Shown here: positions 11,242 through 12,732 of the stretch, one piece after another
Layout: the number at the start of each line of letters is the position of its first letter
Numbering within the stretch: the first letter of the stretch is position 1
From: Candidatus Iainarchaeum sp.
GTDB lineage: Archaea; Iainarchaeota; Iainarchaeia; Iainarchaeales; GCA-2688035
NCBI GenBank assembly: GCA_028713935.1
Contig: JAQTNI010000015.1
Coordinates: 1-27,941 of the forward strand
Reading direction: 5' to 3'
DNA length: 27,941 nucleotides
Made by a program: the position numbers and the translations under genes
Notes under the pieces: model-generated
Told to the model about the DNA's origin: nothing
The model's database searches: none
Seen by the model: the letters and a program-made list of their open reading frames with translations, nothing else

Positions 11242-12732
11242 TCAGTCTTTTGCTATTTCTTTTATTATTTCTGAAACTGTTCCCTTGAAATAAGGGGTTT
11301 CCCCAGAAAGGTAATAATCAGCGCTGCCCAATAATTCCCCAATGTTGAATTTCTGGATTGAATCAATTTTTCCTGTTTCAATTTTGTCTCTCTGGGCAAG
11401 CTGTTTTGCTGTCAATTTTGAGCCTTTTTGTTCTGCGCGCCTGAATCTTTCTTTTTTGCTGCAGGTTATTCCCACAAGATAGGTTTTGAAAAATTGTTTC
11501 AGGAAAGAATATTCTTCTGTTCTCCTTACTGAATCAATTATTATTATTTTTTCATTGTCAAATTCTTTTTCCATTGGCTCAAGGCTTTTTTCAAGCGCGC
11601 CAAGAGAGCCGCTTTCTTCGCAGATTTTTTTGCTGAGTTCCATTATGTTCTGGTAGCTTGGCTCTATGTTTTTCCTTGCAAGCTCTTCTTTCAGGGTTTT
11701 GCCAATTGAAATCACTTTTATCCCTGTTTTTTCAGCTATCTTTGCAAATTCTGTTTTTCCAGAATAAGTGAGGCCTGTCAGGCAAATCAGCTTTGCATGC
11801 CTTCTTTTTATTTTCATAAACCTGATTGCATTATCCTGCCTTATTAAACAGGATTTTATGTCTCCGTTCGGCATTATTCTTATGGCATAAGGCCCTTCAA
11901 CGCATTGCCCTTTCTGCGGGCAGTTCCTGCAGTGTGCGGAATTTTCTATTTTTTTCCTGTATTCTTCATTCCTGAAATCATTTATTTCAATGTTGGTTCC
12001 GTCAGAAAAAAAGTATTTTGATGATGGCACAAAGCTTTTTTCGTTTATTTCTTTTTTTACCAGTGTTTTATTCATTTTTATCAGGTTAAGGGCTTGTGCG
12101 CTTAAAGGATAGGCCTGGTCTTCGGAAAGTCTTGTGAGTATTTTCAGTGTTATCCTGTTGTCCCTGCAGAAATTTGTTATGTCCAGGATTTCTTCTGGAA
12201 AATTCATGCCAGGCACTATAACACAGTTGACTTTTACATTTTCAAAAATTGCCCTTGCAAGCACTGTATTGTCAAGCACTTTCTCTATGTTTGGGCAATT
12301 GTTCATTTGGATTGCTGTTTTTTTATTTATTGTGTCAAAGCTGATTGTTATCCTGCCAAGCCCGCTTTCCCTGAGCTTTTCAAGTTTTTCCCTGTCCAAA
12401 AGCGAGCCGTTAGTGACAAGGGAAATATCTTCAAAGCCTGCCTGCTTGAAGATTTTTATTATTTCAAAAAGGTCCTGCCTGAGCAATGGTTCCCCGCCAG
12501 TGAATTTGACTTTTTTTAATCCCAAAGCACTGAATGTTTTTGCAATGAAAGTGTAGTCAGTTTTGTCCAGGTAATTTTCATATTTTGCCTGCATGCCTTC
12601 CTTGTGGCAGTAAAAGCAGTTGAGATTGCATTTTTCAGTGACACAAACCCTGAGGCAGGGCTGGGTTTCATAAGTTAATGCAAGGCTTTTTACTTTGCCG
12701 TAGAAATTCTGCTGTTCTGAAAATAAAGACAT
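11242..12732 (-). CDS. Fusion protein: MoaA-like radical SAM domain (N-terminal, about 330 aa) plus a UPF0200/dephospho-CoA-kinase-like P-loop nucleotide kinase domain (C-terminal, about 150 aa)
   Basis: N-terminal evidence:
- CNLNCFYCHKEG (CxxxCxxC)
- VKFTGGEPLLRQDL
- ISLVTNGSLL
- LGRITISFDT
- a distal Cys cluster, HCRNCPQKGQCVEGPYAIRIMPNGDIKSC

C-terminal evidence:
- Walker A in ICLTGLTYSGKTEFAK
- IIIDSVRRTEEYSFLK
- LVGITCSKKERFRRAEQKG
- RDKIE..IGELLGSADYYL

The C-terminal elements are collinear with archaeal UPF0200-type kinases. I prefer the ATG at 12732 (MSLFSEQQ) over the track start at 12855, which would overlap the divergent gene. Confidence 0.7.
   Translation of the reverse strand: MSLFSEQQNFYGKVKSLALTYETQPCLRVCVTEKCNLNCFYCHKEGMQAKYENYLDKTDYTFIAKTFSALGLKKVKFTGGEPLLRQDLFEIIKIFKQAGFEDISLVTNGSLLDREKLEKLRESGLGRITISFDTINKKTAIQMNNCPNIEKVLDNTVLARAIFENVKVNCVIVPGMNFPEEILDITNFCRDNRITLKILTRLSEDQAYPLSAQALNLIKMNKTLVKKEINEKSFVPSSKYFFSDGTNIEINDFRNEEYRKKIENSAHCRNCPQKGQCVEGPYAIRIMPNGDIKSCLIRQDNAIRFMKIKRRHAKLICLTGLTYSGKTEFAKIAEKTGIKVISIGKTLKEELARKNIEPSYQNIMELSKKICEESGSLGALEKSLEPMEKEFDNEKIIIIDSVRRTEEYSFLKQFFKTYLVGITCSKKERFRRAEQKGSKLTAKQLAQRDKIETGKIDSIQKFNIGELLGSADYYLSGETPYFKGTVSEIIKEIAKD

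Follow-up and report, generated by a model that had tools for sequence, protein, structure and literature searches.

The window analysed here is a 27,941-nucleotide stretch of DNA from the archaeon Candidatus Iainarchaeum sp. (contig JAQTNI010000015.1 of assembly GCA_028713935.1). It carries on its minus strand, at 11242..12732, a complete gene that encodes a radical S-adenosylmethionine (SAM) domain followed by a P-loop nucleotide kinase domain. Our analysis confirms that this is a real, single-open-reading-frame (ORF) fusion of a MoaA-like radical enzyme and a nucleotide kinase, and we think that its product is probably not a molybdenum cofactor (Moco) enzyme but a bifunctional one from a nucleotide-modifying pathway that has not been described before. 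Gene context, and above all the kinase and CYTH-domain genes that are fused to or lie beside its relatives, is the strongest functional evidence for such a pathway.

The gene has 496 codons and a TGA stop (11242-11244), and lies within a minus-strand ORF that spans 11242-12855 and contains an ATG at 12732. This ATG is supported as the start because the homologs all begin within about four residues of it; an alternative TTG upstream at 12855 would give overlap with the divergent neighboring gene. The 496-aa product has the same sequence as NCBI MDD5163231.1 ("radical SAM protein [Candidatus ainarchaeum sp.]"). Pfam finds Radical_SAM at residues 30-187 (E 3.7e-26; Fer4_12 also matches) and AAA_18 at residues 316-439 (E 3.7e-8; AAA_17 also matches), and no NCBIfam or Pfam model captures the fusion family. 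A search of 5.8 billion protein clusters returned eight more full-length homologs (490-500 aa, 51-60% identity) and one fragment; below these the score drops in a single step from 530 to 136 bits, where ordinary ~300-aa MoaA proteins begin. A scan of metagenomes added a tenth member (locus L133; loci are designated L and proteins P below). The homologs are drawn from independent assemblies (NCBI, JGI and Logan), and mean column identity in the family alignment is 71% over both domains and the linker. Since about ten independent homologs have the same junction, an assembly or frameshift artefact, which the first-pass annotation of this sequence had named as a danger to its reading, is ruled out. 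Both domains have intact catalytic motifs in the alignment, and the AlphaFold2 model of the whole chain (mean pLDDT 90.9, pTM 0.83) suggests, from a pTM this high for a two-domain chain, that they hold a defined mutual orientation.

Residues 1-312 (11797..12732, minus strand) form what NCBIfam, Foldseek and clade-profile scores indicate to be a MoaA/AbmM-like "twitch" radical SAM domain. The CX3CX2C motif predicted to bind the radical SAM [4Fe-4S] cluster (C35/C39/C42; 12607..12630) stands in the string CNLNCFYCHKEG and is invariant in 26 sequences of the clade described below and in a 48-sequence set that includes MoaA. The SAM-binding motif GGEP (residues 79-82; 12487..12498), within FTGGEPLL (77-84), is likewise invariant, and both motifs are as in MoaA; the strings VTNGSLL and ISFDT are also present. 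The first-pass annotation had called these features archaeal MoaA hallmarks, which holds for the common core but not for the distal Cys motif, which matches AbmM (8wm2) rather than MoaA. It had been right that the distal motif is expanded: the string HCRNCPQKGQCVEGPYAIRIMPNGDIKSC gives C268-x2-C271-x5-C277-x17-C295, and the full clade-defining pattern, a putative four-Cys auxiliary-cluster motif, is C268-x2-C271-x5-C277-x-E279-G280-P-Y282-A-x-R285...C295 (11848..11931, minus strand). Archaeal MoaA at the same place reads FCAHC------TRIRVTHDGYLKPC, so relative to MoaA the fusion family has a six-residue insertion with a fourth Cys (C277), followed by E-G-P-Y-A. All 109 scorable true MoaA matches from the first homolog search have C-x2-C-x13-C.

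MoaA models are the best-scoring named families for the fusion protein, but it reaches none of the three curated NCBIfam cutoffs (TIGR02668, moaA_archaeal, 181.2 bits against 325.25; NF001199, 179.3 against 231; TIGR02666, 148.5 against 284.05), and Pfam finds no match to Mob_synth_C (PF06463) in it. The best Foldseek matches of the radical SAM domain are MoaA (2fb2/1tv7, E 3e-15), with AbmM (8wm2) at E 1.6e-8. Alignment to Staphylococcus aureus MoaA (1tv7) pairs R17, K69, R71, K163 and R192, which we take to be positions that bind the GTP triphosphate, with R28, K74, K76, K167 and K197 of the fusion protein. Of R266 and R268, presumably the guanine-binding Arg pair (structure 2fb3), the second is kept as R285, and the position of the first is taken by the E-G-P-Y-A insertion. 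The alignment thus retains the phosphate-site residues while the base-side and cluster-side region is remodelled relative to MoaA, whose three-Cys auxiliary cluster leaves an open iron site for GTP.

We placed the domain in a neighbor-joining tree (75 sequences, 289 columns, 100 bootstraps; a rough method, not maximum likelihood), a check that the first-pass annotation had proposed. The fusion family is monophyletic in 100/100 replicates, MoaA is absent from its sister group in 96/100, and the family lies outside the MoaA clade, defined by its most recent common ancestor, in 86/100. With its scores under the cutoffs, its distinct auxiliary motif and its position outside MoaA in the tree, the radical SAM domain is best classified by sequence as MoaA-like and not as a MoaA ortholog, and we judge that the earlier worry, an incidental kinase on the only moaA of a genome, probably does not apply. 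The likeness to MoaA consists in the partial TIM-barrel core, CX3CX2C, GGEP, the basic residues of the triphosphate site, a second Cys cluster toward the C-terminus and R268. The fusion protein differs in having no free C-terminal tail, its chain running on into the kinase, and the partners of its clade are kinases and CYTH proteins, not MoaC or MoaD/E.

In a profile search of 1.84 billion representative proteins, where the fusion family collapses to one representative, the next matches are stand-alone radical SAM proteins of ~300-340 aa at 165-239 bits (P0121-P0128, P0131-P0136), all with C-x2-C-x5-C-x-E-G-x-Y-A-x-R; true MoaA scores 130-170 bits in the same search. Among the matches listed, 36 of 146 representatives have the four-Cys E-G motif, including the top eight. 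Residues invariant across 26 clade members are R28, C35, N36, C39, C42, G46, GGEP and N108 and, in the distal region, C268, C271, C277, E279, G280, R285 and C295. The clade is rare and patchy over archaea and bacteria, with members scattered among DPANN archaea, bacteria with small genomes, and metagenomes from gut and termite samples. A scan of contigs with a 15-sequence alignment was dominated by true MoaA through VK[FL]TGGEP, and L012 and L014 alone were informative in it.

Besides MoaA, the closest characterized relative of the clade appears to be AbmM. Its structure (8wm2) can be aligned to residues 22-300 of the fusion protein, essentially the entire radical SAM domain, and its cysteines are spaced in the same way (C-x2-C-x5-C-x17-C), so that the fusion protein has both the four-Cys distal motif and the full-domain homology of an AbmM-type enzyme. 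Against solved structures the clade profile scores 132.6 bits for MoaA and 125.3 for AbmM, with the next structure at 73 and viperins at ~50; from the near equality of the first two we consider the four-Cys clade a third, uncharacterized branch of the MoaA/AbmM group. AbmM is described as making the thiofuranose of albomycin by a sulfur-for-oxygen swap, with its own Fe-S cluster as the sulfur donor, and as partnering the nucleoside kinase AbmG (PMC12691670). AbmM thus resembles our protein in belonging to a pathway with a nucleoside kinase, and it also has the conserved Glu and Arg of the distal motif. The two radical SAM domains are ~19-25% identical, however, and AbmM has M-E-Q-S-H-S where the clade has x-E-G-P-Y-A; moreover AbmG is described as a nucleoside kinase, with dNK-type relatives in other loci only, and the kinase of the fusion is of the UPF0200 type.

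This kinase domain occupies residues 314-496 (11245..11793, minus strand) and is predicted to be a UPF0200-type P-loop nucleotide kinase, similar to nucleoside monophosphate (NMP) kinases. Residues 314-489 align end to end with 1-177 of the UPF0200 protein SSO1041 (3lw7/3h0k), its only solved relative, which was matched among PDB sequences at E 2e-10 with the single sequence and 4e-11 with a profile. Together with the Pfam matches this bears out the original reading of a MoaA-like radical SAM enzyme joined to a UPF0200-like Walker-A kinase, and the kinase strings on which it leaned, IIIDSVRRTEEY, ITCSKKERFRRAEQKG and RDKIE...LGSADYYL, are all in the protein, as is the Walker A/P-loop itself, GLTYSGKT (residues 320-327; 11752..11775, minus strand). 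The NMP-site D-x-x-R (D400-S-V-R403), the LID arginines and collinearity over the full domain complete the picture expected of a UPF0200/NMP kinase. Within the fusion family the invariant kinase residues are G320, G325 and K326 of the P-loop and D400, S401, R403, R429, R432, R448 and D449. The "AdkA-like" SSO1041 has in common with our domain Walker A, D-x-V-R, the LID Arg residues and a C-terminal ADY motif; UPF0200 proteins stand alone, whereas here the domain is fused to a radical SAM enzyme or, in relatives, is encoded by an overlapping downstream gene. Kinases of the same type are encoded by separate genes in L012, L014, L138 and other loci. At L014, from an Alphaproteobacteria gut metagenome-assembled genome, the clade radical SAM gene (8001-8957) looks interrupted, with an intact C-terminal ORF of only 208 aa; tblastn nonetheless gives a match to residues 3-494 that spans both the radical SAM and the kinase gene, and a pseudogene or a frameshift is possible.

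Linkage to kinases extends well beyond the fusion family. Among 41 distinct loci that bear the clade motif, 23 have a kinase and 16 a CYTH protein as fusion partner or neighbor; 29 have at least one of the two and 10 have both. The linked kinases come from at least three families (UPF0200-like, AAA_28 and Thymidylate_kin), and other subclades have an AAA_28-type or thymidylate-kinase-type kinase directly downstream of the radical SAM gene. Fusions are seen in every pairing of the three components: apart from the radical SAM-kinase fusion of the window there are kinase-radical SAM proteins (P0235, 505 aa, L010 746-2263; and P0238), a radical SAM-CYTH protein (P0143, 480 aa, L092 1696-3138) and a kinase-CYTH protein (360 aa, L142 1897-2976). 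Elsewhere the components are separate. In L012 overlapping genes for the radical SAM enzyme, a UPF0200-like kinase and a CYTH protein follow one another and are succeeded by an HD gene, and in L138 the radical SAM, kinase and CYTH genes are divergent from a gene like the tyrosyl-tRNA synthetase (TyrRS)-like gene described below. Of the seven Iainarchaeota loci retrieved through homologs, five have a CYTH gene (182 aa) that overlaps the fusion gene at the latter's 3′ end. By Rosetta-stone logic these arrangements show, to the extent that gene fusion and adjacency can, that the kinase and the CYTH protein are functionally coupled to the radical SAM enzyme. The first-pass idea that a phosphorylated nucleotide is made and then modified is strongly reinforced by this recurrence of kinases from different families and of CYTH.

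The CYTH protein is closest to the archaeal triphosphatase SaTTM (7ns8, E 1.5e-22, full length). Class IV cyclases match its C-terminal half only, although the cutoff of TIGR00318, "class IV adenylate cyclase", is passed. Among 89 other neighbors of the clade loci the recurrent Pfam families are more P-loop kinases, NUDIX and GreA/GreB, and no Moco family occurs twice. The 28-kb window has no Moco gene either (none of moaC, moaB/mogA, moaD/E or moeA, and no molybdoenzyme gene), in agreement with the first-pass remark that it holds no other molybdopterin genes. Proteins with a GreA/GreB C-terminal domain are fused to the radical SAM enzyme in P0190 (L094 8001-9871), where a CYTH gene follows, or are encoded next to it (L011 108-1554; L012 10526-11002), and this linkage hints at a connection with the RNA polymerase secondary channel. 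In addition, two Iainarchaeota loci, L007 (5119-7452) and L008 (5308-7633), carry 1-3 kb downstream of the module another radical SAM gene, of 441 aa, together with a metallo-beta-lactamase (MBL) gene with an Apyc1-like Pfam match, and in L011 an MBL gene lies directly 3′ of the radical SAM gene.

The fusion gene adjoins a divergent gene of ~420 codons, whose product resembles TyrRS, in each of the ten Iainarchaeota-type loci examined (the window and nine others). In the window it is a plus-strand gene at 12806..14062 that encodes 418 aa. Homologs are scarce (14 clusters among the 5.8 billion) and co-occur with the radical SAM-kinase family; the distant locus L138 has one, and overall the partner is present in 8 of the 41 clade loci. 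Pfam detects no aminoacyl-tRNA synthetase domain in it, and hhalign of a 421-aa TyrRS-like neighbor against Methanocaldococcus jannaschii TyrRS was weak (probability 20%); we accept the TyrRS identity nonetheless because a structure search later confirmed the fold. The AlphaFold2 model (pLDDT 84) has tyrosyl-tRNA synthetases as all of its top 50 Foldseek matches in the PDB (E 8e-12, ~350 aligned columns, 12-15% identity). The HIGH motif has degenerated to T-H-L-K-H/Y and there is no KMSKS. The C-terminal 70 residues form an ArsR-type winged helix-turn-helix (wHTH; HTH_5) most similar to those of Csa3 and CasR. Judged from the model, the partner is a degenerate archaeal-type TyrRS paralog with an added wHTH, and its most likely function is to regulate the operon in response to a ligand.

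The two divergent genes have in common a 73-bp AT-rich promoter region (12733..12805), in which an alignment of seven orthologous intergenic regions reveals a conserved core with an ATAAC-N4-GTTAT-like inverted repeat (12767-12780). L007 and L008 have the repeat without mismatches, the other loci with one or two; an operator is one possible function, a back-to-back pair of TATA boxes another. A different arrangement is found in L148 (2227-6051), where a 32%-identical TyrRS-like homolog (P0279) stands ahead of genes for a B12-binding radical SAM enzyme, a CYTH protein and a thymidylate-kinase/dNK-like kinase. This radical SAM enzyme and kinase match the PADLOC candidate defence pair PDC-M51A/B, so that a radical SAM enzyme not homologous to ours is here found in the company of the same partners.

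From the domain identities, the conserved motifs, the separation from MoaA, and the gene linkages and fusions, we infer a substrate class, an order of steps, a chemistry, a role for the regulator and a biological purpose as follows. The UPF0200-type kinase would phosphorylate a nucleoside mono- or diphosphate, a step we propose because the P-loop, D-S-x-R and LID-type Arg residues are all conserved. The resulting di- or triphosphate would be held in the N-terminal MoaA/AbmM-like barrel by R28, K74, K76, K167 and K197. There the CX3CX2C cluster would cleave SAM, and the 5′-deoxyadenosyl radical would take a hydrogen from the ribose. The substrate radical would then be processed beside a second Fe-S cluster, presumably bound by the four-Cys motif with its invariant Glu-Gly, to yield a sugar- or base-remodelled nucleotide unlike the 3′,8-cyclo-GTP of MoaA; sugar remodelling of the AbmM type is the closest precedent. 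In most relatives a triphosphatase-type CYTH protein, translationally coupled downstream, may remove phosphates, either for release of the product or for protection of the producer. In Iainarchaeota, finally, the divergent TyrRS-derived wHTH protein may sense a ligand and regulate the operon. The biological role could be antiviral, antimetabolite, signalling or cofactor-related. More tentatively, and with somewhat more doubt than belief, we suggest that the four-Cys clade, an obligatory kinase and a CYTH triphosphatase form an unrecognized, widely scattered pathway to modified nucleotides of a new class (thio-sugar, cyclo- or dehydro-nucleotides, for example), a pathway which in Iainarchaeota is controlled by, or signals through, a dead-TyrRS transcription factor.

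Several observations weigh against this pathway as drawn. We found no functional literature on UPF0200, a family that has no assigned substrate. The position of AbmM in the tree is unstable, with no stable grouping with the clade in the neighbor-joining bootstrap, and Cys spacing in common with AbmM is no proof of common chemistry. Neither a kinase nor a CYTH protein is found in 12 of the 41 clade loci, many of them on short contigs. No reading frame of the window itself encodes a CYTH protein, which leaves the triad incomplete at this locus at least; a convergent HtpX gene stands at the 3′ side of the fusion gene instead. Lastly, the TyrRS-like gene of L148 is co-directional with the next gene and overlaps it, a layout equally compatible with a pathway enzyme or binding protein and with a regulator.

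Other explanations must be set beside an undescribed nucleotide-modifying pathway. It is extremely improbable that the fusion protein is a genuine MoaA, a GTP 3′,8-cyclase for the molybdenum or tungsten cofactor with a kinase that is incidental or supplies GTP. The scores among named families, the top structural match, the conserved equivalents of R17, K69, K163 and R268, and the JGI label "cyclic pyranopterin phosphate synthase" on two family members (P0008 and P0009) are what one would expect of a MoaA, but scores far short of the three cutoffs, the lack of Mob_synth_C, the inserted fourth Cys, the loss of R266 and the branching outside MoaA are not; nor are the absence of Moco genes from the window, the lack of any recurrent Moco family among the 89 neighbors of clade loci, and kinases and CYTH proteins as the recurrent partners of the clade. 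The JGI label is probably a misannotation, and such labels would wrongly credit genomes with Moco synthesis. We regard as very improbable a role in RNA (tRNA) modification, with the TyrRS-derived protein as tRNA binder and the radical SAM-kinase protein modifying or phosphorylating a nucleotide inside the RNA. The partner does keep the TyrRS fold in full, down to the stretch that matches the anticodon-binding part, and adds a nucleic-acid-binding wHTH, and translation genes adjoin the module in the window (L21e, KsgA), L094 (str operon, rimP-nusA) and L006 (LysRS). Against this, the wHTH is most similar to Csa3/CasR/ArsR transcription-factor types, the partner is restricted to the eight loci mentioned above, and the general partners, several NMP-type kinase families including thymidylate-kinase-like ones together with CYTH, point to free nucleotides. 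A nucleoside-analog antimetabolite or antibiotic (a thio-sugar or other ribomimetic) made in the style of AbmM/AbmG or ThmABC is distinctly unlikely; CYTH would then be a self-resistance or maturation phosphatase and the TyrRS-like protein a resistance decoy or tailoring enzyme. The Cys motif and overall homology to AbmM favor it, as do the variable phosphohydrolases (HD, NUDIX, MBL) of the neighborhoods. Extra aminoacyl-tRNA synthetase copies are recognized in clusters that make antibiotics directed at these enzymes, which also counts in its favor. A parallel to the trio is the 4′-thiothymidine cluster thmABC of Photorhabdus, likewise made up of a radical SAM enzyme, a kinase and an NTPase, the last of which gives self-resistance (PMC12691670). 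ThmA, however, has no significant similarity to AbmM according to the authors of that mBio paper (PMC12691670), so the likeness to thmABC, a three-gene logic of radical SAM enzyme, kinase and triphosphatase, is one of function only and not of family membership. Moreover, the grouping of AbmM with the clade is unstable, the TyrRS-like partner has degenerated too far to serve as a replacement synthetase, and the loci examined have no transporter or tailoring genes typical of biosynthetic clusters.

Unlikely as well, in our view, is a viperin-like antiviral role, in which a kinase-made nucleoside triphosphate (NTP) would be turned into a chain-terminating or toxic nucleotide against viral polymerases and the CYTH or Gre-like factor would protect the host. 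In viperin and pVip systems, too, the radical SAM enzyme acts on an NTP from a linked or fused kinase (CMPK2-type), and in eukaryotes viperins occur as fusions with nucleotide kinases and with "triphosphatase or cyclase" domains (bioRxiv 10.1101/2023.09.13.557418). PADLOC pVip models match the radical SAM core at 87 and 81 bits, and the kinase resembles the kinase part of an anti-phage dCTP deaminase and, weakly, VakA. In both the window and L008 the module has PIN and toxin-antitoxin genes in its vicinity. A GreA-like protein is fusion partner or neighbor of the clade enzyme in P0190, L011 and L012, and the TyrRS-like, CYTH and kinase partners of L148 stand around a B12-type radical SAM enzyme and kinase that match PDC-M51A/B. 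This link and the rare, patchy distribution of the clade argue for conflict-related functions. On the other hand, the viperin model NF038283 scores the fusion protein at 78.2 bits, far below its cutoff of 180; viperins have a single cluster and no auxiliary one, whereas the fusion protein has a second conserved Cys cluster; viperin-kinase fusions use another kinase family and another domain order; and a triphosphatase would destroy an NTP effector. The Iainarchaeota module looks vertically inherited (51-60% identity, constant partner) and sits among housekeeping genes such as those for L21e, an Rpo subunit, KsgA and the pyr operon, and L094 lies between the str operon and rimP-nusA; such surroundings, and a transmission in Iainarchaeota that seems to be vertical, speak against a typical mobile defence island, and we saw no evidence of a defence-island setting for the loci. 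One pattern scan of viral contigs yielded no true member, its sole match (L096) being a chance one inside a high-GC phage structural region. PDC-M51A is itself a B12-binding radical SAM enzyme, not MoaA-like, and offers a functional analogy only; Ophion (radical SAM, PHP and phosphoribosyltransferase) was set aside, its composition being unrelated.

We found no paper on the four-Cys clade, on the radical SAM-kinase fusion or on the radical SAM-kinase-CYTH triad. What is new here is an undescribed branch among nucleotide-modifying radical SAM enzymes with a kinase partner, a type that is already known. Radical SAM enzymes that act on free nucleotides have each opened a field: MoaA that of cofactor biosynthesis, viperin that of antiviral chain terminators and AbmM that of thionucleoside antibiotics. 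The fusions, by fixing the kinase and CYTH partners, provide a precise set of proteins with which a new nucleotide product might be found, and the family occurs in DPANN archaea, a lineage of poorly known physiology. The TyrRS-wHTH protein, if it is a regulator, would be an unusual recruitment of an aminoacyl-tRNA synthetase fold for regulation; a TyrRS-derived transcription factor would be a new sensor architecture, analogous to the CARF-wHTH regulators.

Among the other genes of the window is a near-complete de novo pyrimidine cluster on the minus strand (16790-27921), which is notable for a DPANN-type archaeon. It comprises carB (cut by the window end), pyrB, pyrD with an Fe-S/FAD subunit, a dihydroorotase-like amidohydrolase, a phosphoribosyltransferase and pyrF. 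A minus-strand gene for an AMP/thymidine-phosphorylase-like protein (14892-16388; Glycos_trans_3N, Glycos_transf_3, PYNP_C) is split by an in-frame TGA (15306-15308) into same-frame ORFs of 360 and 129 aa, for which a pseudogene, a sequencing error or read-through is possible. TGA is a normal stop here: the 32 called ORFs of the window end in TAA (17) or TGA (15) and none in TAG. A 5S rRNA gene is found at 5929-6044 (minus strand; Rfam RF00001, 64.9 bits), and there are no tRNA genes in the window. Close to it a 148-aa protein with a retroviral-type aspartyl protease domain is encoded at 6094-6540 (minus strand). A PIN_2 domain protein is encoded at 7769-8200 (plus strand), and a PIN and RHH pair also adjoins the module in L008.

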